Assembly: GCA_964630515.1 (NCBI GenBank)
Contig: CAZVVP010000001.1
Location: forward strand, 1,139-65,138
Length of the DNA stretch: 64,000 nt
From: an uncultured Christensenella sp.
GTDB taxonomy: Bacteria; Bacillota; Clostridia; Christensenellales; UBA1242
Reading direction: 5' to 3'
The notes beneath the pieces are model-generated. The model searched no databases, was not told the DNA's origin, and worked only from the letters and a program-made list of their open reading frames with translations. The translations under genes and the position numbers were made by a program. Position 1 is the stretch's first letter. Each line of letters starts with the position of its first letter. Of the stretch, positions 448 to 47,935 are shown piece after piece.

Positions 448-493
448 TTATATTCATATACTAAATAATTTGACAATAATTGTTTTTTTTTGT

Positions 494-518
494 AATCTTA
501 TCTATGATAAGATTTTTT
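494..518 (+). terminator. hairpin plus T-run upstream of giant gene 1 (terminator- or attenuator-like)
   Basis: aatcttatc (494-502) pairs with gataagatt (506-514), followed by tttttt. No upstream + strand gene is visible, so its role is unclear. Confidence 0.3.
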
Positions 519-660
519 ATTTTATAAATAAAATAGTGGTCTTAAATTTTAGGATAAATCAAAAAGATGTTGACTATTATAAAGAATTAATAAATATTTG
601 AAAAGTTATAGATACTTTTGGATATTTTGACAAAAATAAAATATATAAGGAAATGAAATT

Positions 661-3600
661 ATGGAATATGAGTCTACCCAAGCAAAAAAATTAGTAAAAA
701 TGCTTGAGACAAGTGAGGCACAAGAAAAGGCGTATTGGTTAAGGAGGACTAGACGGGCAATATTAATTTGGTCGATGATTTTTGTTATCGCCACTTTGTC
801 TGCAGTGTTTATCATACTTGGTCTTAACGAAAGAAATAAGTACGTCAACTTTGACTTGCATTTTGTTAAGTACTCTGACGATGCAAGCGAAGAGCCACAG
901 ATAGAGCATGAAGAAAGAAAAGCAAGTATCTATGATACAATTAAAAATATTGAGCTACCTAATGATATAGAAGGATATAATTTTAATGGAAAATATTTTA
1001 ATTCTTCTAACTTTGAGGTGCTGGTTAATCCAGAAAGTAATATTGCTAGTAGTCTTACTTATGAGAAAGCAATCTATATGCAATACGAATTGGGGCACTA
1101 TAGATTATCAATTCTAACTTCTCAAAAAGACAATGATATCTTTACAAGTGGAGATGGAGTGATTGGATATAATAAAACAATGTATGTTGTGCCATCATCT
1201 CCTATTGCAACAGATAATAATGCAATTGATAGATTCTTAGATGATAGGAAAGATTATATAGCTAACAATAATGTTGATTACATAGGAAATAATTTATACA
1301 ATTTATATGCTTTGAAGTTTAGCGAAGTTAATGAGAGCAATAATTCAATCACAGATATTGACGGAAAACTAAACAATCATATTTTTGGTTTCCATATGTC
1401 CTACAAAGGTCAAAATGTTCAATATTATTTTTATGAAGTTGTTGTAAAGAACCAAGCTAATAACGCAATTTTTGAAACTTATTTGGTAGAAAAATATATT
1501 AATGGCGAACTTTCTGCAAGAAATTTCTCTAATAATTATGCAGTCCTATTAACAGACGAAGGAGAGCCAAAAGTTGAAACTGCTACAAGCGGGGATAAAT
1601 ACTATTTTACAGATGGCACTATCCTAGACGACAATTCTCAAGATAACGCTAACGTATTTAAGATGCCTGGACATGATGTAACAGTATACATTGACTGGAT
1701 GGTTGATGATAGATATGTTATAGTTATGGATACAGTAGATGAGTATACATGGAATCGTATTTATTCTGATTACATAGTACAAAATAATAATTCTGATACA
1801 TATCAAAATATTAAGGAGTCTTTTGGATTAGATTATAATACTCCTGGATATTTAGAAAATGCTAAGACTGATGGTGTGGATGATGACTGGGACCACTTGA
1901 AAGACAACTTAAGCGAATATTATAAAGAGAATGATGGTGTATGGGACAGAACAGCTGTTAAGAAGATTTCTGCAGATGATGCAAATGCTAATATTAAAAC
2001 TTATTTAGACACTTATTTCAAAAAGGGTTATAATATTGCAACAATCAATTCTGGTCATGCTTTCCCTTATTATAAGTTCGGATATGAAACAAAGAAAGAG
2101 ACTTGGCAAATTTATACTTATGATAAAGATTTGGGTAAGTATTCATGGGTTAATGTTGATAACACAACTAACTTAAATGCATATGCTCAAGATGTATGTA
2201 TAGTTATTAGAGCAACATGGAATCCTTATGAATATTATCTGGAATTTAAGGATAGTGGAAACGCTGTCGGAACACTTAGTAATTTCCCTGGTTATGGAAG
2301 TTCTGGTGACTTTGGACGAAAACTTACAATGGACTTGGTTAATAATTTAGAAAGCAATACCACTAAAAGAGTTAGAAGATTGATTTCTGGAAGTGATAAA
2401 GATTTCTTATATTTAACCAAAACTGGTCATGAGTTCGTAGGTTGGCAATTAAATGGCAAACTTTCCTTTAATACTTCTGTTGGAGAAAACGGAAAAGGTT
2501 ATTTCGATATTGACACAACTTCAGACAATAGAATTCATGTTATTGTAGAGAGTCCAACTTTTAAGTATAAAATTAATTCTTTAGATGAACCACTAGAAGT
2601 AGAAGCTACTAAGTTCCTAAATTATAATTACAACGATAATATTGATAATCAGAACAGAAAATTATGGAAATATGATACTAATTATAAAGGCAAAAGCTAT
2701 ACATTCTATTATTTTGGCACTAAAACAGAGTTAGAAAGTGGTGTTAATTCCAAGATGGAAATTCCTGTTGGATATTATGCTACAGATGGCGCAAAAACCA
2801 CTTTGGAACTTAATCCAATTTGGAGCGTAATAAGTTATGAAATTACTGTAGACTTCAATATTGACAGCGCAAATGAGTTGGAATTGGGCGAAGCTGCAGG
2901 TGGTAAGACTATTTATGGTTTTGGCAATATTTATGGATTAGACGAAAGCTTTGATTATAACCCAAACACTGAGGGCAATCAACAATATGATGAAATAGTT
3001 ACAGATAATAATGGTTATGAAACTGGATTTAAAATTATATATGATGTCAATACAGCATTCTATTTGCCAGGATATGAACAACTTTATCGTAGAGGATATA
3101 AGTTTACTGGATACAAATTCTACAAAGTGGAAAATGGTAACAAAGTAGAACTTACAGGTAATGATTATGTATTTACTATAGGTGAAAGTTCGTCTGATAA
3201 AAATATTTATGAAAAAGTATTGATTAATGCTCCAAGTATTGCTGTAGAAAGTAATACAACCAAGATTAATAACTTGTTTGATGAAATTATAGTTGAAGCA
3301 CAGTGGGAAGCGGAAGTTTATAAAGTTGGCTATAATACAACTGCAACAGCTGATCAATCTACTAAAGTAAAATCTATTACAACACAAATTAACTATAACA
3401 TGACTTTACAAACTCCTAACTCTAACATTACTCATTATGTTTGGGATGAAGACGTAGAGATTAATAATAGTGGAAAGTTTGTAAAAAATACTTATACTTA
3501 TATTTTCCCTAAAGACAGAACAACTAACGCTTCTGCAGTTATATATGTTAAGCTAAAAGATATGTTCTCTAACTCTACATTTAGATTAATTCTTAATTTA

Positions 3601-6600
3601 GATGGAAAAAGTTATGAATATTCTAAAGAAGATTTGCTTGAATATATAGGAAGTAATTCAATTAAGTTTGAAGATAACTATTCTGGAATAAAGATTACTA
3701 AAGCAGAAATAAAAATTACTAAAGAGGAAATTGGTGGAGAGACTTATTATAAGTTCACCTTTGTTGATTTGGCTTGTGATGTGAAGTTTAATATTGACCA
3801 AATAGACTATGACTTAGTTGCAAATACATTAACAGATAGTATAGTAGGGGATAATGTTGATTCTGTAAGCATTATTAGCACTTATAAAGATTTGAAAGGA
3901 ATTTATACAAGTAATCAGACTGCAAAAGACAAAGTTAATTTTGTAATAGTTAGAGACCCATTTAGTCTTGTAAAATATAATATCTATGACATGCTTAATA
4001 TCAAGAAAGAATGGAAAGATGCTGGAATTGACTTAAAAGGTGGAGATTTAGACTCTGGGGTTTCAATCAATACAGTTTATGGAACTATATCAATGAAAGT
4101 TGGCGAAACTACTAAGATTCCACAATTGTTTAATATAGGTGCGTACTTTGCTAAAGTAGGAACTTTGGATATGAGTTCTAGTGCGGTTTTGACACTTGAT
4201 GATATTGTTAAGGGCGACCCATGTTTTGATACATATGGAAATGTAATAGATAGTCCTCTAAAAAATGCAAAAATTCAAACATCTGTTGGTCATGAATTAA
4301 TGACGCAAGAGCTTAAGAGTAGAATTTCTCATGGAATATTTACAAATAGCGTTTATATTAATGGTATAAAAGGAGTGGTTGTTCCCAATACCATCTCAAC
4401 TGTAACTACAAATGGACTTACTTTCTATGAAAATTCTAGTCCAGTGGCATATTACACAATTAAGAATATGAATTACCAAATGCAGTTGACTTTCGAAGGC
4501 GATTACAAGGACTATTTCTCTACATGGAAAACTAAAGTAGCAAGTGGTTATGTGTTAAAAGATTCTACTGCTCAAACTTTTAAAACAAACAATAGTTCAG
4601 AATATATTACAACAGATAAAGTAGAAGTTAGTTTTGAATTAAACAACATTGTTCTTGATACAATCGAGGTTAAGATGTATACAAGACTTAGTCCTGGTGT
4701 AGAAAATCCTCAAGTAGGAACTCCTGCAGTAGGTTATAATGTGCTTAATTATGGTGATAAGGGTGAAGGGGATATACTAACTGCATTAATTAGTGCTGAT
4801 AATACTGTATATAGTGCTTCAAATCTAACTAAAGATAAGGATATATACACTGGCACATATACCGCTCATTCAACTTTTGTATTTGAACCAATATTTACTG
4901 AGGAGTATAGTCAGTATAATGACAAGACTATTGAAGAGCAGAAAAATCTTATCTTGTATGGTCAGTATACTGCGCCTGAAGGCACAAAAGTAACGCTAGA
5001 TAATGGATTGTTTGCAAACCTTAACTTTGATGAAGATGGCGGAAATGCTAAGTTATTAGAATATGACAATACCTTGTACATACAAGTATATGTAACAAAA
5101 CTATCTAATGATAACCAAACTGGAACTAAAGATGTTTATGTAATCAAAGCAGACGATATTATTAACAGCTATGGTTTGACTTTTGGTTATTGGGTTACAG
5201 AGAATGGACAAACTAATGAGAATAAATTATCAACTAGTTTTGGTGCAATTACAATTAATGGTACAGATATTACTGATACTGAGAAAAATATAACGTATAC
5301 CAGTACAACCCTTAGTGCTGATAGTAAAAATCCATCTAAATTACTATATGGGTATAATTATATATTCAAAGTTACACTAAATGATGATTATTCTAATAGT
5401 AAACCAACATTAAGGATTGAATTTAATAATAGTGAAAATACTACACTTAATTTCGACACTAATACAACCACCACAACCTTAGATTCTACTACTAATATTT
5501 TATTTGAGTATATTAGTGATATTGAGTATCAAATAACTTTAACTAATGTACAACATGACTTAACTTTGACAATTGAGAATGTGTATAGGAACTTAAACAC
5601 ATTTAAAATCTTAGGTTATACAAGTGCAAGCGCCGAAGAATTATCAGATATAACCACAAACTTTTTATTACAAAAAGATGAAGGTTTAGTTCCTATAAAT
5701 CAAGATGATGTTTATGATTATACATACATGTATAAAGCAACAGTCGATAGGTTAATTAAATATAGTAGTGGTACATTTACTTATTATGAACAAGGCTCAG
5801 AGATAGAAAATATTGAGGCTTCAAAGTTGTTTACTGAATTTGTGACAGAAGAAGGTTATATTATTGAAGAGGCTGGTGGAGTTGAGCAGTTTATAATTGA
5901 TAACTATACTGAGTTAAGGAAATTAACTGACGATAAAATATTTAAAACTTCTATTGCTATTTTGGTTCAATATAATTATGGAATGTATATACAAAATTAT
6001 ACCTATATCACTAATGCCAATAAAGGTACTGAGTTTAAAATCTATACAGAAGAAAATAGAGATGCCTTTGCGAATAATGGAGCAATTACTCTAGCAGGGG
6101 CCACAAAAACAGATTCTTTAGAACTTGTTGATTATTCTCTAGATAGTGCAATTAAACTAACTCAATCTACTTATGAATTTAAGACTATCAATATTGACTT
6201 AAATTTGAAAATAACTGTAAAACCAAAAGTGTTTACAAAGAATGAGCTTATTATGCCAGAAGATTCTGATTCGATACAGCAGTTTAATATTACTACTGTT
6301 TATAATAATATGGCAGTTGTTATTATGAATAATAATTTTGAAGAGTTTTCAGATGATGATTACATAACAAATGGGGCGTTAAATGAAAACATATCATATC
6401 AAAGTTATGCGTTTATAAGAATCAAATTAAAAGATGCATATAATCAACACTTGTCTTGGACCATAAAAAATGATAAAGGTGAACAATTAGGTTATGTTGA
6501 ATTTGTTAATGGCGTAGAGGATGAAGGTAAAAGAGAGGGCGTAAGGGCTTATTATTATGATGAATATAATAAATATCATTATTACGCTGTCCTTCTAACA

Positions 6601-9600: not shown

Positions 9601-12600
9601 GTTATTATCTTTGATGGAGATTATACCTTTAGCGAAACAGGTGGGGTAGATGTTCAGCCTTATGAATATACTCTAAACTATTTTGATTCTACTAACTCTT
9701 CTAACACTCTAAATGGATATACTCAAAGTTATGTCAATGAAAGTATAACTTATGATACAAATGAAGAAAATATTATATTATCAACTGAAATTAAAGTAAG
9801 CGATATTACTGTTGGTAATATTGTAGTTACAATTAGCGGAAGTTATATTTCAAGCGAAAGTAGTATCTCTAAAGATGGTACTAATTGGTTTGGTTCTAAT
9901 ATCTATATTCCTTATGGCTCTACAGTTGTTGTTGCTATTGTAATAAATGAAACTATTGCAGGAGATAGCTTTAAGAGTTCAACAGAATTTGATGATGGCG
10001 TACTATCTACTACAAGTGCTACAGATGGTAATATAACTTACGATGATGCAGATAAAAAATATACATATACTTATACTGCGGTAGATAATATAATAGCTAA
10101 CCAAACATCTCAAGAAACTACCTTGAAATTAATGCTTAATAGATATACTGTAACAATGCCGGCTAATTATTTGAGTATTGCAAGTATAGAGAAAGGTGGA
10201 GCATTTATTTCTGATGTTGAGACTGATGTAACAGGAACAAATGCTTCGGGACAATCATTTGTTATTGAATACAATACAGAAATTGTATTGCAATATACTA
10301 ATACTAGTAATATGGATTATGCGAATATTACTGGAGATTTTAAGCCTTATAATAATGAAACATTAGCTGGTGATTTGGTAATTGTTAATGGAGAATTAAA
10401 CAATTATTACTATAATGGTGTAGAAATTGGTAGTGCATTCAAAGATGAAGACAAAGATAGTCATTATACATATACTCTAATTGCTGGTCAAGATGAAAAT
10501 GTACAAAATGTAACTAGTTATAGTTTTGGCGTTAACTATGATACAATGAGATATATTGTTTCGTTTACAGGTATTGATAACTTTGAAAATTTTGATGAAT
10601 ATGTAGAGAATAATTTTGAAGGAATCGAAAGTATAGATTTGTATTTATCTTTAGCAGATGGTACTAACAAGAAAGTTAATTACTTCTCTAGTTCTCTCAC
10701 ACGTAACCTTATAGGCCCTGCTGATTGTGATTATACTGAGAACTTTGATCTAATTGAGAATATCTTGTCAGGTTTACTGTGTGAAAAATATATATATTTC
10801 TGTGTTTCAGATGCGGATGATAGTTATCCATATTATACTAACGATTATGAGTTAGGATTTATACTTAAAGTTACATTAAAAGATGGTTATGAAAGTTTTA
10901 CAGTTATTGCAACAAATGGAGAAAAAACAAATACACGTTATGGTAGCTTAGATGATAATGGTGTAAATTTGCAAACCATATATTTATATAGAGAAAATGG
11001 CTTAATTGTTGACCCTCATCTTAATTTTGACATTAAAGCAGGAGATATCAACAATTATTCGGTTACTCTAACTTCTGAGAATTTGAAGTTTAGCGGTAAT
11101 AATAAATCTATCACATATAATCAAAACCATGGTGCTAATGGTACATTCTCATTTAAATTTGATACTAATTATTCTAACGCTGAGTATTTCTATATACAGA
11201 ATACTTATCCAAGTACTGAGATTTATACTTTTATTATTAATGGAAATAATATTAAAGATGGATCGGGGAATGATATTAATAATACCGTATTGACATTTGG
11301 TGGAGTTGGTATTACCATTGTGTCTGCAACATATGATGGTACAGTTACTATTAAGTGGATGATTAGTGACAATATTAGTAATACTTTAAAAGTCTATACC
11401 GATGATATTAATGGGTATAATTTACAAATTAATTTGGGTGATAATGAAGATAATAGAGTTACAGGTGTAAAATCTTACATTGAGGCAGAAGCTGAGAAGC
11501 AAGACTGGGCTCTTTCTTCTACAGAACAAGAAATCGCTGTTACTGCAACTGCGACTTTGGAATTTACTTTACAGACACATTATACTCAGACAGAAAAATT
11601 TAGATTTGTGCTAAAAAATGCTTCCGGAAATGAAGAAAGAGGAGAAGATAATCCTTTTGAAATTGAGGTTGGAACAAGTGGATCAATTGATACTTGGGTA
11701 AAATATAGTTGTACTAGAGATGGCGACACAATCACGATTACATTTAGTGATATTACAACCAAATTCTCTATGGAAATGTTAACATTAGCTGTTAATTGGT
11801 ATGACATTAAGTATGATTCTTCAAATAAAACTTATATTGCTGGTTGGAGCGCTGTAAGTACAGCGACAGAACATTCAGATTATGTTACAAAGGTTAGTGA
11901 AGATCTTTATAGAGGACTTGGGACAAATTGTGCAAAGATAACCATTAAGGTTGCTGACGAGTATTCTCAACTAAATAATGCTATATTGACATTTGGTTAT
12001 GGATCTAATACAATTACTTATAAGTATGAATATTATAACAATACTTTGCAGTGGAGAACTGAATCAACTGATGGTAATTTGCTTAGTTTTTCTTATAATA
12101 CAAACGATCAAGAAATCACTTTTATATGGAGAATATTAGATGATCTTACAGTTTGCTTAAGTTCTGCGGATGAGAATACATACAAATTTGTCATTAATTA
12201 TATAACTTATGATTCTAGTTCTAGTAGCTGGACAACTGCTACAACAACAAACGAGGTTAATATTGGGCATACTGAGTTAATTTATGATGCTTTAAAAAGG
12301 GAATACTCTTCTGTAGATACAGATAAAGAGTTTATGGCAAAATATGGTCTAAAGTTTGTAGGATATATTCTACAAAATGGTACTTATGGAACAAATTGCT
12401 TTGTAGGAGAAAATGCTTACATTAAGGACTCTTATGCCAAAGGTATCACATATACTGATGATACTACTGGTGTAGAAGTCTCAGATTTAACACTTTATGC
12501 CTGTTATGAGAGAGGAGATTTCGACATAGCGGTTCAAACCACAACTGGAACAACTTATGATAAGACAATTTCCTTTGGTCAAGATATTGCTTTTAATAGC

Positions 12601-15600
12601 ACAAACGACTATGTTGTTGACAATTATGCACACTTTAAAGATTACAAATTCCAATATATTAGTGGCGTTAAGGTAGGTGCTGGCATTTCGTATGATAGTG
12701 CTAGTGCTAATAGTGTATTTACTAATGATGATGGTGATGATGAGGGTAGTTTGTTAGATAATTCTATTGTAAAGACTACAGATGATTATCTTGCATTCTT
12801 AAATTCTTATACACAACAAGAAACTGCAAATAAGAAGTTGGTAATGAAATACTCCGACACTGTGATAAATCTAACATTTAGTTTTGACGAAAATGTAAAT
12901 CTTGGAATTACTGATTTGTTTACAATTTCAGATGAAGAACAGGGATATGTTGTAAATTATGATGGTACTTATAAGTATATTCCAGGAAATGTTGTTGATT
13001 CAACAACTAGAATTGGTTGGTTAGATAATGGAAAAACATATTATCAAGCTATTTCATTTGAAGAAACTGAAGGAATGAATAGTGTATATGTAATGTATAT
13101 TAACGAATCTAAAGCTTTGGTTAAATATAAGGTAGCTAGTAAAGAAAAGATTACTATAATCAATGCTTCAGGAGAGGTTCCAAATGTTAGTGCTGGTGTA
13201 TTAGAATCCAATACTACAGTTATCGACTACTCAGACTTAGCTATCTTGACTATTAATGGAGACAAAAACGGAAGCGTAGCTATTGCTGAGCAATACAATG
13301 GTTTAACCATGGGAATAGATGGTATTAAAGATACTGCAACATCAGGAAAATCATTAAATGCAGGACTTCTAGATAAGTATTGGGGAGAAGAGCTAGATGT
13401 GCATAAACTATTATCTAGTTCACTTAATATAGAAATTAAAGTTGTTGCTAGTAAGATGTTAAATGTTAATTTTGAGATTTATTTGCCTAATGGTACATAT
13501 GAGTCTGTTAATAACTTTATGTATGAAGAAAATGAAAGCTTGGAGATTAGTAACGGTATTGATGATATTATAGCTAGAGCTTTTACTAATAGAAATATTT
13601 CTTTCTATGGTACAGATACAAGTAATAACTTAGTACTTCTTAGTTCTTACTATAAATTAGCAAAAGACTATACCGTTAAAAATAATGATTATTATACTAA
13701 TTATGATTCAACAAATGGCTTTGCTAACTTTATTATTGAGTCCGCAACAGATTCGTCAGGTAATGACAAAACAGAAGAAGCTAAAAGTTATTTAAGCAAT
13801 GAAATTTTGAATGCCAAAGGATTGATAGATGCTGGAATTACATCTATTACCCTTACTCTAGATACATACCAAATTAGAGGTGCGGAAGAAACACCATTTA
13901 TAATAGAAAATAATGCTACTTGGGATGTTATTATGGGTAATGTGTCCAAGAATGCATATGTTAAGGACTTGGACGGAAATGATAAAGTTGAAGATGGTTC
14001 TACTACAGATGCTAGATATTACTATGCGCAAACTGAAGATTTGGAATTGACAGATTTGGCAGATTTAAACTATAACTTCTACGGTCATTATTATGGTACT
14101 TCAAGTACAGAATCGGTTGATGATGGAGCTGGCGGAACTAGAGAAAGACTTTATTCTACAATAAACAGGGTAGATTCTGAAGATAGCACAAACATAGACA
14201 CAGCCCCTGTATTTGGCAAAATCAATGCTAATTCTAGTGTCAAAGGGCTAAATATTGTAGGAGATATTAGTGAGACTAGTCTTGGAACTGGTTGGACTGC
14301 TGGTAATTATTGGGGTAACTTGGCGGTAAGTGCATCGCATAATATAGAGATTAGTGATATTGTACTAGGTACTTCTGATGATATAACAACAACTGATGAT
14401 GAAAGGGATAGTATTACTAGTAGCTATTCGCGTACTGGAGCATTGTTAGGTACTATAGCTTCAAGTGAAGATATAGATAATAGAACATTTACAATTAATA
14501 ATATTGTTAATAACTACAATATAAATAGTACAAATAAAATGGTTACTAATGTTGGATTCATTGATATTTCTAATTATGGCAGAAAGGCAACAATGGAAAT
14601 AGATAATGTTGTCAATAATGGAGATTTTAATGGTCTACTAGTTGCAGGAACTGTTATAGTAATGAAGTTCAACTGTACAGTATTTGAGGAAGATACAACA
14701 ACAATTAAATATAGTTATAATGAGAATAGTAGCTTAGTTATATCTAATTCGGAAAATAACGGAGAGCTGATTTCAGATGATGGTAGTGGTTCAAATGGTC
14801 GTGTTGCTGGTATTGCCTATATTGAGAGTTCATTTAATGTTGTATTAGATAAATGTACAAACAGTGGGAAAATAACAAATAACAACAATTCATTATCCCA
14901 AACCGAAGATGATGATGGTAATGTTAGTTATACATTATCTTCTTATACTGCAGGAATAGTAGTTTCTAATGCAAATATCTTAACAATTAATAATTGTATT
15001 AACAAAGGACAAATTGAACATTCTCTTGTTTGTTCAGGAATCTGTGTTCTTACTAAAGGTAAAAACGACACCGCAAAGATAACAATAAATAGCTGTACAA
15101 ATGAAGGAAAACTTATAGGTAGTGGCTATGTAACAGGAATTGTATTTAATGCAAAATTTACAGAAGATTTAGAATTAGAGATAAAGAATTGTGAAAATAC
15201 TGAAACATTAGAGACAAATGACAACTTTGATCATGAAGACGGAAAGAATTTTTCTCATATTGCTGGTATATATTACGCACTAAACACTGTATTTAGTAAC
15301 AATGTGAAGTTATGTAATAACACTAATAGCGGAACGTTAAAAAATGATAGCATATATAATTCTTTTATTTATGGTATATCAAAATCAAATCACGATATTA
15401 TTATAGAAGGCTGTAATAACGAAGGTGTTTTGGTAAACGATGGTGCAAGACAATCTGAAATATATGGCATAGCTTGTGCTAAAGGCAATGCTACATTAAC
15501 CAATTGTACTAATAGTGGAACATTTACTCATGGTAAAAGTAGTAATGTATTGGATACAGCATCTGAAATGTATGGTGTAGCATATGTAGGCGGAAAAGGT

Positions 15601-18000
15601 ACTATACAAGGTTGTAGCAATAGTGGAGAGTTTAATCACTATTCTACTGGTTACACTATAATGTGTGGTGTTGCTTACATTGAGGGTGAAGGAAATCTAT
15701 CTAGTTATACCTATACTGAGAACGGATATGATACTACAGTTAATTGTACTAATAGTGGTGCATTTAATAATTACTCAAACAATGCGCTTATTGCTGGTGT
15801 TGCAATAATTGACAACAATGGTACATTAAGTAATTGTTACAATACACAAACAGGCGAGTTTAATAATTATAGTTCAAGTAGTACTGAAGCGGCTAGTGAC
15901 AATTTAGTAGTTGCTGTAGGTGTGGCTTATCTTACAGGCCAAGCAACATTAACCAATTGTACTAATAGTGGTGCATTTAATAACAACATAAATTGTAAAG
16001 CCGAAATGTATGGTGTAGCATTGGTTGAAAATAATGTTGCGACCTTAACCAATTGTTCTAATAGTGGAGCATTTAATCATGGAACAAGTAGTAATACACT
16101 AAGTACAGAATCCAAAATGTATGGTGTAGCGTATGTTTTTGGAGATGGTACTTTGACAGGTTGTGTAAATAATGGAGAGTTTAATCATTATTCTACTGGA
16201 GCTACTACAATGTGTGGAATTGCTTACATTAGTCGAGATGGAGATGTTTCATCTTATGTGGATTGGACGAATATTAGTAATAACGTTTATTGTATAAATA
16301 CTGGTTTATTTAATAACTATACAGGTGCAGGTAAGTCTACGATGTATGGTATTGCATATATTGGCGGTGTTGGTGAATTAACTTACTGCGATAATAGAGG
16401 AGCATTTAATCATGGAACAAGAGGTACTACATCAAGTGCAGAATCCGAAATGTATGGTGTAGCGTATGTAGGTGGCGTTGCGGATCTAAACTACTGCGAC
16501 AACGAGGCAGATAAGTTTAATCACTATTCCACTGGAGCTACGACTATGTACGGCGTTGCTTGTTTAAGTAACACTAATTCTGTAAGTAAAGTAAATGGTT
16601 GTTCGAATAAGGCTACATTTAATACAGGCGATGGAACTTCTAATAAAACAATTTATGGCGTAGCGTATATTGGTCAAGCTAGTGCTCTATTCAATTGTGG
16701 CAATTATGGTGCTGTTAGTGATGGAAATACCACAGATTACTCTAATTTGACATACTATCCTGTGGCGTATATTGGTACAGCTGTAGGAGATGAAACTACC
16801 AACACGTTTACCTTGAGTAGCATATCAAATGGAAAAGTAGATACTACTAGTAACAGTATAGTAGCTGCTAGCTTCCCTAAGGATTATCAATTAACTGAGA
16901 GAAGGGATATTGTAACAATTGGTACTTATGATAGTTCTATTAGTACAATTTATGTATCAAGCTGTGAAAATTACATAGATTATACTTATGCTAAGAGTGT
17001 AACAGCTGCTGTGGCTGGTGTTATTACTATACCAAATATATCTGGTCTTGAGAATGTGAGTGTTTCTGGTTGCATAAACTATGGTAATATTACTGCTAAT
17101 TATGCTAGTGCTGTTGTAGGTGTTGTTAGATGTGAGGCTGATGTTAAGACAAAAATAACTAGCTGTAATAATGGTACAAATATTACTTATACAAAGAATG
17201 GCGTTGAGGTAACTAATATTAGTTTGACAACTACAATAGGTAATATATTTGGTGTAGCACAAGTGATGCAAGCAGACTCAGTTAAATGTTGTGTTAATTT
17301 TGCAAATTTAATTTGTAATGACACTGATAATTCTGGTACTTACACATATACAGACGAAGAAAATCAACATGTAATAGTAGGTGTTGTATATGCTGCTGGC
17401 AATATTGGAGAAATTAGTTTCTGTGCTAATGGAGCAGGTAGTGGATCTAAGATAAGTAGTACTAGTAAGAACAATATTATTGCTGGTGTTGCTTATGCTG
17501 AGAATATTGACAAATGTACAAGATATGACAGTACAACAACAACAAACTATGGAGCTATAAACTATATGAATATAGAAGTTGCTAGCGGTGAGGGATTGTC
17601 TAGTACTACTAACAATGGCAAACAATATATAGATGGTTCTATAATAGCTGGTTGTATTATACTTAGAAATGCGATTGTTGACACTACTACGTGGTATCAA
17701 GTTAAAAACAGTGGACAAATCGGAACTGATACTGGGTATGGCGTTATTAATTCTGGCTGTATCATTGTAATGCATGCGTATACAGATACAGCTAAGACTA
17801 GTGAGGCTACTAGTGAGCAAGTTGAAGGTAAGTATGCTGTAGGTATAGGTGAAAAAGTCGGAGATTATACTACAGATACAGGAATAATTAATGAAGGTGA
17901 GATTGCTCCAACATCAAATGATGCTATATATAAAGATCAGGAACTTCTATACTTCTTAGATTATTCGATTAATTATGAAGTTGTTGAAGAGGCTGAATAA
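661..18000 (+). CDS. giant (5,779 aa) membrane-anchored surface protein, adhesin-like
   Basis: Single uninterrupted ORF with SD-like aagga 9 nt before the ATG. The N-terminus has RRTRR followed by the TM helix AILIWSMIFVIATLSAVFIILGL (signal-anchor). About 4,400 aa of ~100-aa modules follow, many opening with an N-x-Y-x-(V/I/L) strand (INTYEAQIL, LNSYAITVG, INTYKLTFV, LNRYTVTMP...). Scattered Listeria-Bacteroides-repeat-like G(H/Y)xFxG(W/Y) motifs occur (KTGHEFVGWQLNG, RRGYKFTGYKF, KYGLKFVGYILQNG). The C-terminal ~1,380 aa are tandem Cys-containing repeats. There is no LPXTG or C-terminal TM. Confidence 0.93.
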   Translation: MEYESTQAKKLVKMLETSEAQEKAYWLRRTRRAILIWSMIFVIATLSAVFIILGLNERNKYVNFDLHFVKYSDDASEEPQIEHEERKASIYDTIKNIELPNDIEGYNFNGKYFNSSNFEVLVNPESNIASSLTYEKAIYMQYELGHYRLSILTSQKDNDIFTSGDGVIGYNKTMYVVPSSPIATDNNAIDRFLDDRKDYIANNNVDYIGNNLYNLYALKFSEVNESNNSITDIDGKLNNHIFGFHMSYKGQNVQYYFYEVVVKNQANNAIFETYLVEKYINGELSARNFSNNYAVLLTDEGEPKVETATSGDKYYFTDGTILDDNSQDNANVFKMPGHDVTVYIDWMVDDRYVIVMDTVDEYTWNRIYSDYIVQNNNSDTYQNIKESFGLDYNTPGYLENAKTDGVDDDWDHLKDNLSEYYKENDGVWDRTAVKKISADDANANIKTYLDTYFKKGYNIATINSGHAFPYYKFGYETKKETWQIYTYDKDLGKYSWVNVDNTTNLNAYAQDVCIVIRATWNPYEYYLEFKDSGNAVGTLSNFPGYGSSGDFGRKLTMDLVNNLESNTTKRVRRLISGSDKDFLYLTKTGHEFVGWQLNGKLSFNTSVGENGKGYFDIDTTSDNRIHVIVESPTFKYKINSLDEPLEVEATKFLNYNYNDNIDNQNRKLWKYDTNYKGKSYTFYYFGTKTELESGVNSKMEIPVGYYATDGAKTTLELNPIWSVISYEITVDFNIDSANELELGEAAGGKTIYGFGNIYGLDESFDYNPNTEGNQQYDEIVTDNNGYETGFKIIYDVNTAFYLPGYEQLYRRGYKFTGYKFYKVENGNKVELTGNDYVFTIGESSSDKNIYEKVLINAPSIAVESNTTKINNLFDEIIVEAQWEAEVYKVGYNTTATADQSTKVKSITTQINYNMTLQTPNSNITHYVWDEDVEINNSGKFVKNTYTYIFPKDRTTNASAVIYVKLKDMFSNSTFRLILNLDGKSYEYSKEDLLEYIGSNSIKFEDNYSGIKITKAEIKITKEEIGGETYYKFTFVDLACDVKFNIDQIDYDLVANTLTDSIVGDNVDSVSIISTYKDLKGIYTSNQTAKDKVNFVIVRDPFSLVKYNIYDMLNIKKEWKDAGIDLKGGDLDSGVSINTVYGTISMKVGETTKIPQLFNIGAYFAKVGTLDMSSSAVLTLDDIVKGDPCFDTYGNVIDSPLKNAKIQTSVGHELMTQELKSRISHGIFTNSVYINGIKGVVVPNTISTVTTNGLTFYENSSPVAYYTIKNMNYQMQLTFEGDYKDYFSTWKTKVASGYVLKDSTAQTFKTNNSSEYITTDKVEVSFELNNIVLDTIEVKMYTRLSPGVENPQVGTPAVGYNVLNYGDKGEGDILTALISADNTVYSASNLTKDKDIYTGTYTAHSTFVFEPIFTEEYSQYNDKTIEEQKNLILYGQYTAPEGTKVTLDNGLFANLNFDEDGGNAKLLEYDNTLYIQVYVTKLSNDNQTGTKDVYVIKADDIINSYGLTFGYWVTENGQTNENKLSTSFGAITINGTDITDTEKNITYTSTTLSADSKNPSKLLYGYNYIFKVTLNDDYSNSKPTLRIEFNNSENTTLNFDTNTTTTTLDSTTNILFEYISDIEYQITLTNVQHDLTLTIENVYRNLNTFKILGYTSASAEELSDITTNFLLQKDEGLVPINQDDVYDYTYMYKATVDRLIKYSSGTFTYYEQGSEIENIEASKLFTEFVTEEGYIIEEAGGVEQFIIDNYTELRKLTDDKIFKTSIAILVQYNYGMYIQNYTYITNANKGTEFKIYTEENRDAFANNGAITLAGATKTDSLELVDYSLDSAIKLTQSTYEFKTINIDLNLKITVKPKVFTKNELIMPEDSDSIQQFNITTVYNNMAVVIMNNNFEEFSDDDYITNGALNENISYQSYAFIRIKLKDAYNQHLSWTIKNDKGEQLGYVEFVNGVEDEGKREGVRAYYYDEYNKYHYYAVLLTSTGTSDLGITIEINNPINTYEAQILEGKNSVGTYSKGEGSEVENILSHTTDSYIATTSSGKKNESNLYVVEYGQDLSYNVTIRPGYEKFKLDITSSGSGYVDQFVYDGGNWSHTGSSSSNINGQENPKINISSLTSSTSDTGETIYIFTITINDITADTQIELHTFERKGLSVNATNISQTTIKSQAIATEDEINDNLNEKPADTNFSTTTTDLYYGDSIKLTLTVNAGYEKSGFKILVNGCAFEFDAKKYVDSERNFNGTYDAITNSTMLTYGFSSISVAETMTTDSTTYEPTITVTITIYRVIADITVEVSEMTKNSYTVSGTDTNGVWELTEGTKPVQETTPVQEGKEAQFKITVPAAYNIDEIERITLKLNRYAQDSNNEEATIVVTDTPIKLNFKGMSYTCVRYSAPNEDGYFIITINALLADIEVKQINISLNSYAITVGYNESKDYLDNVVYQTYYSASNTNTGWKNLVDINGLKTTGSGYEFKVEHGYHSLIYFELTGGSYFDLNLLTDEKINKVEIKNTEKYGTDYSQWLIDNFDSLTDMGVKSSMLNFVYNGSHQDKLHGENGVNNDNVTYYFVLIFYSVDADTKKEINLDTYLGQSKYSFKSNEYKDGETTVVAEVENSDITYDTIESGTSITILVNEAYTASSINATFTITEPTTGVSDDGTELSIIGGKKEVKFESNVVLSISYDSTSGVITITWYAGQYYDIEVTFDNFKINTYKLTFVNNTDYQDENNNVNYGVNLVFDDSDCGLSNNVYTFKAYYTDINNTKYLGTDVYIVTITTNKGLVDIKGAKITDWTTFKAKFSDGLYYTYDDIKVEIKSVADDVVINWSSNANKVTYLTTDLTFGSKDNTLTIDKKNISNKDVEIKITTQVRNYSIEINDTGDSSNEFETGGVSQSVQTSPGLNPIVQKDYAYNTIILKYVVQAEYLDGIKDTITLDGEDYIYIKDHIIITGPSASNIYFVLKNSAYVSGESEYTFTAVIVNGSTIKSNVIIFDGDYTFSETGGVDVQPYEYTLNYFDSTNSSNTLNGYTQSYVNESITYDTNEENIILSTEIKVSDITVGNIVVTISGSYISSESSISKDGTNWFGSNIYIPYGSTVVVAIVINETIAGDSFKSSTEFDDGVLSTTSATDGNITYDDADKKYTYTYTAVDNIIANQTSQETTLKLMLNRYTVTMPANYLSIASIEKGGAFISDVETDVTGTNASGQSFVIEYNTEIVLQYTNTSNMDYANITGDFKPYNNETLAGDLVIVNGELNNYYYNGVEIGSAFKDEDKDSHYTYTLIAGQDENVQNVTSYSFGVNYDTMRYIVSFTGIDNFENFDEYVENNFEGIESIDLYLSLADGTNKKVNYFSSSLTRNLIGPADCDYTENFDLIENILSGLLCEKYIYFCVSDADDSYPYYTNDYELGFILKVTLKDGYESFTVIATNGEKTNTRYGSLDDNGVNLQTIYLYRENGLIVDPHLNFDIKAGDINNYSVTLTSENLKFSGNNKSITYNQNHGANGTFSFKFDTNYSNAEYFYIQNTYPSTEIYTFIINGNNIKDGSGNDINNTVLTFGGVGITIVSATYDGTVTIKWMISDNISNTLKVYTDDINGYNLQINLGDNEDNRVTGVKSYIEAEAEKQDWALSSTEQEIAVTATATLEFTLQTHYTQTEKFRFVLKNASGNEERGEDNPFEIEVGTSGSIDTWVKYSCTRDGDTITITFSDITTKFSMEMLTLAVNWYDIKYDSSNKTYIAGWSAVSTATEHSDYVTKVSEDLYRGLGTNCAKITIKVADEYSQLNNAILTFGYGSNTITYKYEYYNNTLQWRTESTDGNLLSFSYNTNDQEITFIWRILDDLTVCLSSADENTYKFVINYITYDSSSSSWTTATTTNEVNIGHTELIYDALKREYSSVDTDKEFMAKYGLKFVGYILQNGTYGTNCFVGENAYIKDSYAKGITYTDDTTGVEVSDLTLYACYERGDFDIAVQTTTGTTYDKTISFGQDIAFNSTNDYVVDNYAHFKDYKFQYISGVKVGAGISYDSASANSVFTNDDGDDEGSLLDNSIVKTTDDYLAFLNSYTQQETANKKLVMKYSDTVINLTFSFDENVNLGITDLFTISDEEQGYVVNYDGTYKYIPGNVVDSTTRIGWLDNGKTYYQAISFEETEGMNSVYVMYINESKALVKYKVASKEKITIINASGEVPNVSAGVLESNTTVIDYSDLAILTINGDKNGSVAIAEQYNGLTMGIDGIKDTATSGKSLNAGLLDKYWGEELDVHKLLSSSLNIEIKVVASKMLNVNFEIYLPNGTYESVNNFMYEENESLEISNGIDDIIARAFTNRNISFYGTDTSNNLVLLSSYYKLAKDYTVKNNDYYTNYDSTNGFANFIIESATDSSGNDKTEEAKSYLSNEILNAKGLIDAGITSITLTLDTYQIRGAEETPFIIENNATWDVIMGNVSKNAYVKDLDGNDKVEDGSTTDARYYYAQTEDLELTDLADLNYNFYGHYYGTSSTESVDDGAGGTRERLYSTINRVDSEDSTNIDTAPVFGKINANSSVKGLNIVGDISETSLGTGWTAGNYWGNLAVSASHNIEISDIVLGTSDDITTTDDERDSITSSYSRTGALLGTIASSEDIDNRTFTINNIVNNYNINSTNKMVTNVGFIDISNYGRKATMEIDNVVNNGDFNGLLVAGTVIVMKFNCTVFEEDTTTIKYSYNENSSLVISNSENNGELISDDGSGSNGRVAGIAYIESSFNVVLDKCTNSGKITNNNNSLSQTEDDDGNVSYTLSSYTAGIVVSNANILTINNCINKGQIEHSLVCSGICVLTKGKNDTAKITINSCTNEGKLIGSGYVTGIVFNAKFTEDLELEIKNCENTETLETNDNFDHEDGKNFSHIAGIYYALNTVFSNNVKLCNNTNSGTLKNDSIYNSFIYGISKSNHDIIIEGCNNEGVLVNDGARQSEIYGIACAKGNATLTNCTNSGTFTHGKSSNVLDTASEMYGVAYVGGKGTIQGCSNSGEFNHYSTGYTIMCGVAYIEGEGNLSSYTYTENGYDTTVNCTNSGAFNNYSNNALIAGVAIIDNNGTLSNCYNTQTGEFNNYSSSSTEAASDNLVVAVGVAYLTGQATLTNCTNSGAFNNNINCKAEMYGVALVENNVATLTNCSNSGAFNHGTSSNTLSTESKMYGVAYVFGDGTLTGCVNNGEFNHYSTGATTMCGIAYISRDGDVSSYVDWTNISNNVYCINTGLFNNYTGAGKSTMYGIAYIGGVGELTYCDNRGAFNHGTRGTTSSAESEMYGVAYVGGVADLNYCDNEADKFNHYSTGATTMYGVACLSNTNSVSKVNGCSNKATFNTGDGTSNKTIYGVAYIGQASALFNCGNYGAVSDGNTTDYSNLTYYPVAYIGTAVGDETTNTFTLSSISNGKVDTTSNSIVAASFPKDYQLTERRDIVTIGTYDSSISTIYVSSCENYIDYTYAKSVTAAVAGVITIPNISGLENVSVSGCINYGNITANYASAVVGVVRCEADVKTKITSCNNGTNITYTKNGVEVTNISLTTTIGNIFGVAQVMQADSVKCCVNFANLICNDTDNSGTYTYTDEENQHVIVGVVYAAGNIGEISFCANGAGSGSKISSTSKNNIIAGVAYAENIDKCTRYDSTTTTNYGAINYMNIEVASGEGLSSTTNNGKQYIDGSIIAGCIILRNAIVDTTTWYQVKNSGQIGTDTGYGVINSGCIIVMHAYTDTAKTSEATSEQVEGKYAVGIGEKVGDYTTDTGIINEGEIAPTSNDAIYKDQELLYFLDYSINYEVVEEAE
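13870..18000 (+). repeat. protein-level tandem degenerate 30-40 aa repeats (predicted parallel beta-helix) forming the C-terminus of giant protein 1
   Basis: An entry segment (EETPFIIENNATWDVIMG...YYYAQTEDLELTDLADLNYNFYGHYYG) is followed by at least ~23 units counted by eye. The unit pattern is (L/I)xNCxNxGxFxx...(M/I)YG(V/I)AY(V/I)xG, for example TNCTNSGTFTHG...EMYGVAYVGG, QGCSNSGEFNHY...MCGVAYIEG and TYCDNRGAFNHG...EMYGVAYVGG. Confidence 0.75.
15480..16700 (+). repeat. DNA-level diverged direct repeats (about 190-nt super-units) inside giant gene 1
   Basis: Units start near 15495, 16045 and 16385. They share long identical runs such as ttaaccaattgt(a/t)ctaatagtgg, gcatttaatcatggaacaag, gaaatgtatggtgtagc(a/g)tatgt and gagtttaatca(c/t)tattc(t/c)actgg. 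Confidence 0.7.
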
Positions 18001-18064
18001 TTATATAGTGGATTAAATTAGAGAGATTATTTCTTTAACAATTTTAAAAAAAACTAATTAAAAA

Positions 18065-18106
18065 AAGAAAACAAAGTTAATGTGCAGGCTTTGTTTTCTT
18101 TTTTTT
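18065..18106 (+). terminator. rho-independent terminator after giant gene 1
   Basis: aagaaaacaaag (18065-18076) pairs with ctttgttttctt (18089-18100), running into a T-run up to 18106. Confidence 0.7.
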
Positions 18107-33488: not shown

Positions 33489-33642
33489 ACTAGTTTCAAA
33501 AGTTAATAACCTTCGTATAGTCTTTTTTTTTGTAAATGGACATAATTCTACATATTTTTCAAATAATAAAAATAGGTTATGAAATTGCAAAAATATTTGT
33601 TATACTAAAGTTAAGAATAATATTTATTTGAGAAATGAAATA

Positions 33643-46511: not shown

Positions 46512-46642
46512 ATTAAAAGGTATTAAATTGTCGAAAAAATGAAAATAAAAAATTATAGCTATTGAATTTGAAATATTAATGTTTTTCTATTAGATTTTCT
46601 GTCAAGAAATAATTAACGGAAGATTTAAAGGAGATTGTTTTG

Positions 46643-47155: not shown

Positions 47156-47159
47156 TAAA

Positions 47160-47864: not shown

Positions 47865-47935
47865 AGAAATTTGTGACAACTGTATAAATACAATTGTCAA
47901 AAAATATATTGATAATGTCAAAATTTGGGTAATAT

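Follow-up and report, generated by a model that had tools for sequence, protein, structure and literature searches.

A putative giant surface fibre with a single N-terminal transmembrane helix and a predicted beta-solenoid tip in uncultured Clostridia

The giant gene and its surroundings

We describe here a giant gene near the start of the window, by which we mean the whole 64,000-nucleotide stretch of DNA that was analysed, together with its flanking features and the parts of its product. The features are as follows, with the basis of each in brackets.

570..626, forward strand: two overlapping sigma-70-like promoter candidates, TTGACT-17-AATATT and TTGAAA-17-GATATT (consensus scan)
661..18000, forward strand: giant open reading frame, 5,779 aa, 642 kDa, pI 4.4 (frame without internal stop; full-length homologues)
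661..756, forward strand: predicted cytoplasmic N-terminal tail, aa 1-32, MEYESTQAKKLVKMLETSEAQEKAYWLRRTRR (invariant alignment columns)
757..825, forward strand: single transmembrane helix, aa 33-55, AILIWSMIFVIATLSAVFIILGL (hydropathy scan; predicted Nin-Cout signal-anchor)
826..3360, forward strand: conserved, putatively membrane- and wall-proximal base, aa 56-900 (family alignment, 28-34% identity)
3361..13872, forward strand: variable stalk, aa 901-4404 (strand-rich composition, N-x-Y-x-hydrophobic junctions, family alignment)
13873..17997, forward strand: C-terminal tip module, aa 4405-5779 (cap and coil repeats, AlphaFold2, Foldseek)
14473..16245, forward strand: best-modelled beta-solenoid stretch, aa 4605-5195 (AlphaFold2)
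18060..18105, forward strand: perfect 17-bp hairpin plus T-run, 60 nt past the stop codon of the giant gene
18429..21116, forward strand: MacB-type fused ABC ATPase and FtsX-type permease, 895 aa (family match, topology, synteny)

The preliminary description had reported a single 17.3-kb frame encoding 5,779 residues, and the frame indeed runs for 5,779 codons with zero internal stops. Its start codon is backed by an N-terminus (MEYES...) that is conserved in every homologue, and the ATG is preceded at about 10 nt by an AGGA ribosome-binding site. The product is acidic and abundant in strand-forming residues; serine makes up 8.4% of it, with no serine-rich-repeat (SRR) tracts, and the first of its 51 cysteines is at aa 513. 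In a set of 1.84 billion representative proteins the relatives number only about ten, every one a giant (6,108 aa at most) and every one from uncultured Clostridia of gut or rumen. The N-terminus is common to nine further members, each its own 50%-identity cluster, and five of these nine clusters contain intact giants of 5,358-6,108 aa.

That so long a frame is an assembly artefact, or a pseudogene in decay, is hardly credible. The exact allele is known from one contig only, and among related lineages one has a gene split by a frameshift in a G5 tract (1,265 + 5,949 aa) and another is truncated at 3,285 aa, but chance cannot yield a 17.3-kb open frame in DNA of 30% G+C, and the eight further sequences that make up the five intact clusters keep the start, the order and the neighbours. 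Because intact giants occur in five clusters, and one homologue recurs without change on 17 contigs of different assemblies, the gene is, on these comparisons, real and maintained.

The number of promoter-like sites is not above shuffle expectation, and the two upstream sites are candidates only. A repeated motif at 350-448, also 5' of the giant gene, is not conserved in homologous loci. The hairpin at 18060..18105 is likely to be an intrinsic terminator, so that the giant gene is probably monocistronic; a terminator scan that requires G+C did not pick this hairpin up. Elsewhere in the window are the spore-former genes SpoIIR, SleB and YpeB (46640-49258), in keeping with an earlier statement that the host forms spores. 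A second giant open reading frame starts at 49490 but is not a paralogue of the first by BLASTP, and no other protein encoded in the window is similar to the giant.

Parts of the giant protein

The helix at aa 33-55 is the only segment of transmembrane strength in a Kyte-Doolittle scan of the giant. It is preceded by RRTRR, as had been described before, and this positive cluster lies on the predicted cytoplasmic side; both helix and flank are conserved, with I36, W37, S38 and G54 invariant in the family alignment. The tail ahead of it, in which helix-forming residues are abundant, is the best conserved portion of the giant, with 21 of its 32 positions invariant among eight family members and its motif retained in more divergent ones. 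Typical cleaved signal peptides have shorter n- and h-regions than the 32 aa and 23 aa seen here, which supports an uncleaved signal-anchor. The preliminary description had treated the retention of such a protein by one helix as an open question, and we consider this overstated because N-terminal helices are well established as anchors: Nin-Cout signal-anchors inserted via SRP/Sec hold bitopic proteins on monoderm cells, including PBPs, sortases, LCP enzymes and RsgI anti-sigma factors, and Sec-exported giants of 6-10 thousand residues are known (Ebh/Embp). Anchoring of this kind is ordinary and poses no new problem of export or attachment.

Searches for known families were negative. Pfam gave zero families with the two halves of the giant at E<=1 and with ten 578-aa tiles at E<=10, a search by tiles, of 300 aa, having been proposed at the outset; NCBIfam likewise gave zero families, there are no precomputed Pfam matches on homologues, and PDB sequence searches (phmmer and profile) returned chance-level matches only, a VHH among them. 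Several classes of surface protein could be set aside. The sortase-anchored class is rejected since LPXTG-like motifs (LP.[TSA][GASN] and [NS]P.T[GND]) are absent throughout the giant and a Kyte-Doolittle plot shows no C-terminal hydrophobic tail. The lipoprotein class is rejected given that no cysteine precedes aa 513 and that there is no N-terminal lipobox, lipobox-like strings beginning only at aa 5165. For non-covalent wall binding, the SLH, CW_binding/choline-binding, LysM, SH3 (including SH3b) and CWB2 models are all unmatched in the Pfam halves and tiles. A serine-rich-repeat substrate of the accessory Sec system does not fit, since neither the KxYKxGKxW motif nor SRR tracts are found in the giant and there is no secA2 or secY2 gene within the 64,000-nt window; the YSIRK motif is not found either. 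Nor does a giant adhesin of the RTX/type I class, as RTX (HemolysinCabind) has no Pfam match in halves or tiles and the ABC protein encoded next to the giant is of the MacB type, fused to an FtsX permease, and is not a T1SS ABC. Ig-like repeats are a separate matter: the Big_x (Big_1-13), Cadherin-like, FN3, He_PIG and similar models are unmatched in the halves at E<=1 and the tiles at E<=10, and the structural model of aa 1-1168 is too poor to be classified by fold. No ligand or binding motif was identified in the giant, and the C-termini of homologues are mutually unrelated. The motif scans, Pfam and NCBIfam thus uphold the earlier view that lipobox, LPXTG, S-layer-homology and choline-binding motifs are all missing, and the wider one of a giant surface protein with a single signal-anchor and no wall-sorting signal fits both the sequence and these negative searches.

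The base carries four family-invariant motifs resembling the Listeria-Bacteroides repeat, at about aa 104-112, 474-482, 589-595 and 809-817, with a further copy near aa 3905 and a separate W..DDR..DT.D.Y motif at aa 346-362. In its strict form G(H/Y)xFxG(W/Y) occurs twice in the giant (aa 589 and 812) and in relaxed form four to five times, so that the few motifs of this type previously seen are really there, but the Pfam model Flg_new (PF09479) has no match even at E<=10. We therefore do not place the giant in that repeat family, since the motif is short, is found in few places and does not make up the bulk of the protein. An AlphaFold2 model of aa 1-1168 built from eight sequences has a mean pLDDT of 44.5 and is confident only at about aa 170-350, and Foldseek with this low-confidence model gave nothing usable.

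The stalk had been described as part of a run of about 40 putatively Ig-like modules of about 100 aa, each opening with an N-x-Y-x-hydrophobic strand. A count of NxYx[VILFA] over the body (aa 891-4404) gives 15 occurrences against 7.1 expected (p=0.0045), an enrichment that does not bear out one motif at the head of every module. About ten of these are junctions conserved in the family alignment, at aa 1502, 1998, 2298, 2419, 2706, 3160, 3464, 3584, 3712 and 3839, and their spacing of 120-450 aa suggests a stalk of about 25-30 domains of 120-150 aa each. We conclude that the count of 40 is probably an over-count and that the stalk, judged from composition and alignment, probably consists of about 25-30 beta-rich domains of no detectable family. 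These modules are barely alike: self-BLAST and profile-profile comparison of tiles show few and weak similarities, links in an hhsearch tile database have probabilities of 50-82%, and a jackhmmer search of the eight giants with one module as query reached convergence with two domains.

The C-terminal 1,375 aa, which are 24% of the giant, are unlike the body modules, a point missing from the preliminary description. They open with a conserved cap (RG..ETPFII..A.W...YYAQTEDLELT...FYGHYYG), behind which come about 30 coils, each 31-36 aa long, whose consensus is l.l.nC.N.G.f..(x8-14)..yGvAyv. This region has 37 of the 51 cysteines, and the coils carry a Cys/Asn ladder. For aa 4605-5195 AlphaFold2 gives mean pLDDT values in ten-residue blocks that are mostly about 65-90, with a few low dips, and a pTM of 0.60, with three short strands per repeat. 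The best 50 Foldseek matches to this model are nearly all right-handed beta-helix adhesins, lyases and tailspikes, and they include IgA1 proteases, HxuA, pertactin, EtpA and UpaB, all at E>=0.33. On the modelling, we accordingly predict for the tip a right-handed beta-solenoid with three strands per coil and about 30 coils, and this is an assignment of fold class only because no Foldseek match reaches E<=0.001. GLUG (PF07581) and other beta-helix repeat models are unmatched in the giant even at E<=10.

The same matches raise the question of whether the tip is instead an enzyme, such as a polysaccharide lyase, a hydrolase or a protease scaffold, which would make the giant a tethered degradative enzyme and not an adhesin. 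PL6 alginate lyases, a fucoidan lyase, phage depolymerase tailspikes and IgA1 proteases are among the best-ranked matches (an IgA1 protease and BACOVA_03286 being among the nearest folds, at E>1), and the host is a gut or rumen anaerobe. Nevertheless, every one of these matches is non-significant and reflects shared fold only, Pfam and NCBIfam find no catalytic family, and the highly regular ladder coils look structural. Of the 42 invariant columns in a five-sequence, repeat-containing tip alignment, one is E and the others are G, N, I, W, A, P, F or L; D, K, R and H do not occur among them, which argues against a conserved catalytic site, if weakly given the number of sequences and the repeats. 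We consider an enzymatic tip very unlikely, and prefer to regard it as a surface for display or contact on an adhesin-like fibre.

Conservation of the family and the adjoining MacB-type gene

Identity within the family falls steeply along the giant, from 61% over aa 1-150 to about 30% over aa 150-900 and 12-24% distally. Four near-identical strains share 96-100% identity over the first 450 aa and show mosaic blocks that alternate between 95-100% and 21-35% identity. Rapid distal diversification of this sort, including recombination between strains, is as expected of an exposed adhesin or antigen.

The gene that follows the giant encodes an ABC-FtsX protein with a nucleotide-binding domain at aa 1-230, a first transmembrane helix at about aa 270-293, an extracytoplasmic domain of about 420 aa, and a C-terminal part with three transmembrane helices and then a charged tail. 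The order of giant and ABC-FtsX gene (881-905 aa) is kept in six of the six lineages examined, and rplJ-rplL lie downstream of the two across the relatives examined. An alignment of the ABC-FtsX protein against metagenomes found two distant full-length relatives, which lie amid tandem ABC-FtsX paralogues without a giant and are uninformative for this clade.

A possible model to consider is that the two proteins form a functional pair, in which the MacB-type mechanotransducer would engage the tail or base of the giant for its export, extension, tension or release. The order holds even for the member furthest removed (35% identity), whose upstream surroundings are not the same, the topology is MacB-like with an unusually large extracytoplasmic domain, and the best conserved part of the giant is the part able to touch such a partner; FtsEX with PcsB, CwlO or EnvC, and MacB-type exporters, would be comparable cases. 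However, the rplJ-rplL-rplI block is equally syntenic, so that the linkage may be mere lineage-wide gene order, the two genes are separated by a strong terminator hairpin and a 428-nt spacer, an AAA_14 gene is inserted between them in one lineage, and the distant ABC-FtsX relatives have no giant neighbour. On balance we find a functional pair doubtful and rather unlikely. The stronger proposal, that the invariant tail and base together with the ABC-FtsX protein constitute an undescribed Gram-positive two-part system for export, tensioning or release of a ~640-kDa fibre of unlisted domain families, is somewhat more doubtful still.

A proposed membrane-anchored fibre among known giants

Several known systems share some properties with this giant. 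Ebh and Embp, the staphylococcal fibronectin-binding giants, are Gram-positive surface fibres of about 1 MDa that are Sec-exported and held by a transmembrane helix and not by sortase, which is similar to what we propose here. They differ in having a C-terminal anchor and a cleaved YSIRK-type signal peptide, neither of which is present in our giant, and a rod of FIVAR/GA/DUF1542 alpha-helical modules, none of which are detected in it. The Gram-negative RTX giant adhesins SiiE (5,559 aa), LapA and MpIBP have N-terminal retention, a beta-rich extender and C-terminal ligand-binding modules, and resemble the giant in size and in the order of parts, with a cell-proximal N-terminus, a long extender and a distal tip. 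Type I secretion, however, carries them out C-terminus first and an N-terminal plug keeps them in the outer membrane, whereas the host here belongs to the monoderm Clostridia, and their BIg/Cadherin-like repeats with Ca2+ sites and their RTX repeats are not detected in the giant.

The tip invites comparison with the GLUG domains of IgA1 protease, the Chlamydia Pmp proteins (GGA[ILV]/FxxN), FHA/HxuA/EtpA, pertactin, Fap2 and PfbA, which have right-handed solenoids of coils of about 30 aa. Shared with these adhesins are a glycine-small-hydrophobic motif (yGvAyv here and aGGi in homologues) and an Asn/Cys ladder (C.N.G), and a PF/PY-I-I...YF.QT.DL.L cap is likewise a feature of GLUG-type domains; proteins of this group are also among the nearest folds by Foldseek. 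Most beta-helix adhesins use type V secretion in diderms, though, and here the GLUG model is unmatched and Foldseek values do not fall below E=0.33. For the base, the Listeria-Bacteroides repeat (Flg_new, InlB B-repeat superfamily) offers G[YH]xFxG[WY] and a following ...W at the four sites between aa 104 and 817, but the Pfam model is unmatched and the motif is confined to few places in the giant. The giant-gene proteins of Omnitrophota were considered and rejected as a close analogue, since they have many transmembrane segments and SecA-like domains (10.1101/2023.11.21.568195).

Giant1-5 of Apilactobacillus kunkeei are extracellular proteins, 3,000-8,000 aa long, that combine a beta-solenoid with a rod and diversify by recombination (PMC12863079). 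They are like our giant in being Gram-positive, with a Sec-type N-terminus, no LPXTG, a beta-solenoid on a rod of great length, hardly any sequence families that can be recognised, and short intragenic recombination between strains, and also in that a region may have more than one giant gene (PMC12863079), as with the second frame from 49490 here. In the A. kunkeei proteins, though, the solenoid is N-terminal, retention is by C-terminal SH3b-like wall binding, and the rod consists of alpha-helical Ala-rich repeats (PMC12863079), whereas here the anchor is an N-terminal transmembrane helix, the solenoid is C-terminal and the rod is beta-rich. Homologue searches detect no sequence homology between the two.

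The A. kunkeei Giants occur in both cell lysate and supernatant and are reported to be released or bound to the wall only loosely, with no covalent link (PMC12863079), which lends some weight to a different reading of the N-terminus, in which the helix is a long, specialised but cleavable export signal and the mature giant is released or similarly loosely held. There is a candidate signal-peptidase site after the invariant G54 (I-L-G|L), this glycine belongs to a conserved LG[LF]S[EQ]R motif where the helix ends on the outer side, and the conserved n-region could serve targeting and not a permanent tail, analogues being the extended signal peptides of giant autotransporters and the YSIRK and AST signals of Gram-positive giants. 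Against this, a 23-residue h-region with no A-x-A site is atypical of signal peptidase I substrates, there is no detectable wall-binding domain to retain a released protein, and conservation outside the membrane is highest in the juxtamembrane 100 aa, which fits a fixed membrane-proximal base. We regard cleavage as unlikely, while giving it serious consideration.

We favour, with a probability of roughly 60%, the interpretation that the giant is a type II (Nin-Cout) membrane-anchored, recombination-diversified and adhesin-like surface fibre, where the topology, the non-cleavage of the helix, the fibre shape and the adhesive function are what we infer. The long, hydrophobic, uncleaved N-terminal helix would be inserted co-translationally by SRP/SecYEG, with SecA threading the remainder outward and the 32-aa tail remaining in the cytoplasm. 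The conserved base (aa 56-900) would then be located at the membrane and in the wall zone, and about 3,500 aa of beta-rich domains would form a stalk that passes through and beyond the peptidoglycan. The tip solenoid, with about 30 coils and a length of about 15 nm at 0.48 nm per coil, may be the displayed ligand-binding or contact surface, and the distal parts would be those that diversify fast, including by recombination between strains.

Giant surface fibres decide what gut bacteria adhere to and what phages and antibodies see. The family described here would add a Gram-positive mirror of the RTX adhesins, with an N-terminal anchor, a stalk in the middle and a distal beta-helix tip, built from about 5,700 residues that are unrecognised by any domain library. 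Because the family occurs only in a small clade of uncultured Clostridia from human gut and rumen, and recombines between strains, it may be a useful target both for structural work (prediction and determination) on 'dark' domains and for colonisation studies at the level of strains.

The giant reading frame and its N-terminal helix

The giant protein is encoded by one uninterrupted frame (649-17997) in a window of about 30% G+C, with its first ATG at 661 and a stop codon ending at 18000, and the predicted product has 5,779 residues, a mass of 642 kDa and a pI of 4.4. The single ORF of the preliminary description is therefore borne out, and we divide its product as follows.

aa 1-32, predicted cytoplasmic tail
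aa 33-55, hydrophobic helix
aa 56-900, base
aa 901-4404, stalk
aa 4405-5779, tip

A Kyte-Doolittle scan identifies one transmembrane-strength segment at aa 33-55 (AILIWSMIFVIATLSAVFIILGL), directly after RRTRR, and just one other segment above threshold, which is marginal and lies within the C-terminal repeats, in agreement with the proposed sole N-terminal hydrophobic anchor. LPXTG-like, YSIRK and KxYKxGKxW motifs were sought and are absent, as are a C-terminal hydrophobic tail and, with no Cys before residue 513, any lipobox at the N-terminus. Pfam gave no match to the two halves of the protein (E<=1) and at most chance-level matches in a tiled search (ten 578-aa tiles, E<=10), NCBIfam gave no match, and phmmer against all PDB sequences returned chance matches only. 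The motif scans and the Pfam and NCBIfam negatives sustain the earlier view that there is no classical wall anchor.

The long n-region, the RRTRR positive-inside flank, the 23-residue h-region and the conservation of both fit a predicted uncleaved Nin-Cout signal-anchor, a reading that rests on established membrane-protein rules. The Gram-positive, spore-forming context assumed previously is justified because the window encodes SpoIIR, SleB and YpeB (together at 46640-49258) as well as Lgt, DivIVA, NusG and L10/L12. How the protein is anchored had been presented as an open question, but this was overstated, since retention by an N-terminal signal-anchor is standard. The giant would be inserted and threaded outwards by SRP/Sec and retained by its N-terminal helix; that it is instead cleaved and only loosely attached we consider unlikely.

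Architecture of the stalk and tip

The body had been proposed to comprise some 40 Ig-like modules, each about 100 aa long and starting with N-x-Y-x-hydrophobic, and this was not confirmed. NxYx[VILFA] occurs 15 times in aa 891-4404 against 7.1 expected from shuffles (p=0.0045), and about ten of the sites (aa 1502, 1998, 2298, 2419, 2706, 3160, 3464, 3584, 3712 and 3839) align with the same motif in homologues and, judged by that alignment, are real conserved junctions. Their spacing of 120-450 aa points to roughly 25-30 domains of 120-150 aa rather than 40. Self-BLAST finds weak similarity within the body for only four or five pairs of modules; comparing 140-aa tiles of the family alignment profile against profile gives a handful of pairs at only 50-82% probability, and jackhmmer started from one module does not propagate. 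The strict Listeria-Bacteroides motif is present twice (aa 589 and 812), a relaxed form adds two family-invariant copies, and a further copy lies near aa 3905; Pfam Flg_new does not score on the giant. The composition (VIYFWT 35-39%, helix-formers 23-29%) is rich in strand-forming residues, which makes an all-beta stalk likely. The sole model touching the stalk region, an AlphaFold2 prediction of aa 1-1168 from eight sequences, has a mean pLDDT of 44.5 and gave no usable Foldseek match.

The C-terminal 1,375 aa, which the preliminary description missed, differ from the body modules. They begin at aa 4405 with a family-wide cap, RG..(E/N)(T/N)P(F/Y)II..A.W..I...(K)Y(F/Y).QT.DL.LT...F.G.Y.G, and continue with some 30 repeats, each 31-36 aa long, whose consensus is ..l.l.nC.N.G.f.., a spacer of 8-14 residues and yG(v/i)Ay(v/i); 37 of the giant's 51 Cys residues are found here. 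An AlphaFold2 model of aa 4405-5604 (five sequences, pTM 0.60) has three short strands per repeat in a regular pattern, and across aa 4605-5195 the mean pLDDT of ten-residue blocks is mostly about 65-90 with a few low-confidence dips. Foldseek against the PDB returned no significant match (best E-value 0.33), and the top 50 matches, all non-significant, are nearly all right-handed parallel beta-helices, including PL6 lyases, the two-partner-secreted HxuA, phage tailspikes, IgA1 proteases (7uvl, 7uvk), the putative IgA1 protease BACOVA_03286, pertactin, EtpA and UpaB. Because of this we predict with fair confidence that the tip is a beta-solenoid, an assignment of fold class only, without a family. 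In the tip alignment 42 columns are invariant, occupied by G, N, I, W, A, P, F or L and in one case by E. No D, K, R or H is invariant, which is a weak argument that the tip has a structural or binding function rather than a catalytic one. We consider an enzymatic tip very improbable.

A small family with mosaic alleles

A search of a 5.8-billion-protein collection with aa 1-4650 identified seven relatives, all of 5,358-5,822 aa and none with a Pfam domain, and with aa 1-1150 an exhaustive HMMER search through 1.84 billion cluster representatives found 11 proteins in all, each aligning from residue 1, with one full-length member of 6,108 aa. Word-indexed searching with the repeat-rich C-terminal region missed even the protein's own family, and an empty result there is not evidence of absence. 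The genome records are uncultured Clostridia MAGs, and the sources include the Hadza human gut, an 'uncultured Christensenella sp.' MAG, 'Clostridiales bacterium SIG400' and a rumen co-assembly.

Frameshifts or stops in independent assemblies had been named as grounds for doubt. One homologue is encoded intact and identically on 17 contigs from different assemblies, so the giant frame is maintained in independent data, and we give almost no credence to an ORF artefact or pseudogene. Other lineages include two exceptions, one truncated and one split. At L021:1752-12250, in one homologue-bearing locus, the orthologue ends at 3,285 aa against unrelated AntA/LemA/TPM genes and overlaps an opposite-strand AntA-domain gene, beyond which lie TPM_phosphatase and LemA genes; this suggests either that an insertion or rearrangement truncated the gene or that the contig is chimeric. 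At L022:6740-6870, and at the same coordinates of L023, a frameshift at a TTGGGGGCAAC run divides the orthologue into parts of 1,265 and 5,949 aa, whose called ORFs lie 66 nt apart. Both JGI contigs read identically across this junction; a pseudogene, a homopolymer phase switch and an error are each possible explanations.

Identity of the giant to four non-redundant homologues
Region: identity
aa 1-150: 61%
aa 150-900: 28-34%
beyond aa 900: 12-24%

The 32-aa cytoplasmic tail has 21 positions invariant among eight proteins, and the most divergent members too keep the motif ME[YF]E..(A)..L[VI]..L[ED].SE.Q....(R)R[TL][RK]. Four close alleles (P0004-P0007) share 96-100% identity over their N-terminal 450 residues. 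Beyond this (alignment columns 450-5970) blocks of 95-100% identity alternate with blocks of 21-35%, and the partners change; at columns 4351-4800, for example, P0005/P0006 share 95-100% and P0004/P0007 66-91%, with cross pairs at 21-31% (the DNA of P0006 is L001:10001-26626). On these alignments the pattern is a clear mosaic, and it indicates that divergent cassettes in the presumed exposed part are swapped by recombination between strains.

Neighbouring genes and comparable giant proteins

350-448, three ATATCCACAATTTGTGCAA-like motif copies, one inverted, in the divergent intergenic region upstream of the giant
18060-18105, perfect 17-bp hairpin and T-run, 60 nt past the giant's stop codon
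18248-18369, inverted repeat in the ABC-FtsX leader (35-nt arms, 80% complementary, 52 nt apart; inner 13-nt hairpin)
18429-21116 (+), ABC-FtsX, a MacB-type fused ABC ATPase and permease
24926-26968 (+), membrane protein of a 640-720-aa group with three hydrophobic segments and no Pfam family
33628-36096 (+), 822-aa protein whose N-terminus (…FFVGCSGS) is lipoprotein-like, with a TM helix at the C-terminus and a Flg_new match below threshold (E=0.0018)
49490-64000 (+), second giant ORF of at least 4,836 aa, running past the window end

The 895-aa ABC-FtsX, encoded after a 428-nt spacer, fuses an ABC ATPase to an FtsX-type permease. It starts with an NBD, which is followed by one TM helix, an extracytoplasmic domain of some 420 aa and three TM helices at the C-terminus; MacB proteins are its best relatives in NCBIfam and the PDB. 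Giant, ABC-FtsX and rplJ-rplL keep this order in all six lineages examined, among them that of the 35% identical homologue P0011, at whose locus the upstream genes differ. A functional pairing of the two proteins would be compatible with a membrane-anchored giant, but we regard it as improbable: the ribosomal block is equally syntenic, so synteny does not prove a functional link, an AAA_14 gene lies between the two in one lineage, and more distant ABC-FtsX relatives have no giant neighbour.

Read by eye, the ABC-FtsX NBD (aa 140-171) looks atypical, with CSKEER (family consensus CSPEER) replacing LSGGQ, and a Walker B of LIDD-I/F in which Asp appears in place of the catalytic Glu. The CS(K/P)EER signature and LIDD are conserved in six orthologues, and these motifs suggest a putative slow or regulatory ATPase. 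The inverted repeat could be a structured leader or regulatory element, and the arrangement at 350-448 looks operator-like; it occurs nowhere else in the window and is not conserved in homologous loci. Counterparts of the 24926-26968 protein (L003:26507-28429, L010:27477-29558, L011:33735-35789) occupy the same place, between an aminotransferase gene and lgt, in all loci. The 822-aa protein is another orphan surface protein. The second giant begins MRNILKGLKKVFSVIAVLLSAVISCSLVACSCS, a lipoprotein-type signal with an LVAC lipobox. It matches no Pfam family, and BLASTP finds no resemblance between it and the first giant; the two combined take up roughly half of the 64-kb window.

In concept, the nearest published counterparts are Giant1-5 of A. 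kunkeei. These lack LPXTG, join a beta-solenoid to a long rod and a wall-binding end, and owe their diversification to recombination, but they differ in polarity and rod type (PMC12863079). Ebh/Embp are likewise TM-anchored Gram-positive giants, but with a C-terminal anchor and alpha-helical, and RTX adhesins share a base-extender-tip logic but use type I secretion in diderms. The predicted fold of the tip resembles GLUG, Pmp and FHA-type beta-helix scaffolds, but in sequence comparisons the tip does not match them. The possibility raised earlier of a known, characterised adhesin family finds no support, as the giant matched none of the named families compared in its defining feature, and it is best filed as a new, lineage-restricted family, a variant of an established type, the giant fibrillar surface protein.

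The feature is thus real and its first description partly right. What is unusual is a protein of 5,779 residues with not one recognisable domain, a tiny family, a constant MacB-type neighbour, and an extremely conserved cytoplasmic tail and juxtamembrane base set against a hypervariable mosaic exterior. We favour, with a probability of about 60%, a membrane-anchored, exposed adhesin or antigen fibre, in which the conserved base would fill the membrane and wall zone, the variable beta-rich stalk would point outwards, and the tip would carry a beta-solenoid of about 15 nm (some 30 coils at 0.48 nm per coil). Mosaic alleles and a gradient of conservation like these are expected where ligands, phages or host immunity exert diversifying pressure on an exposed adhesin or antigen.
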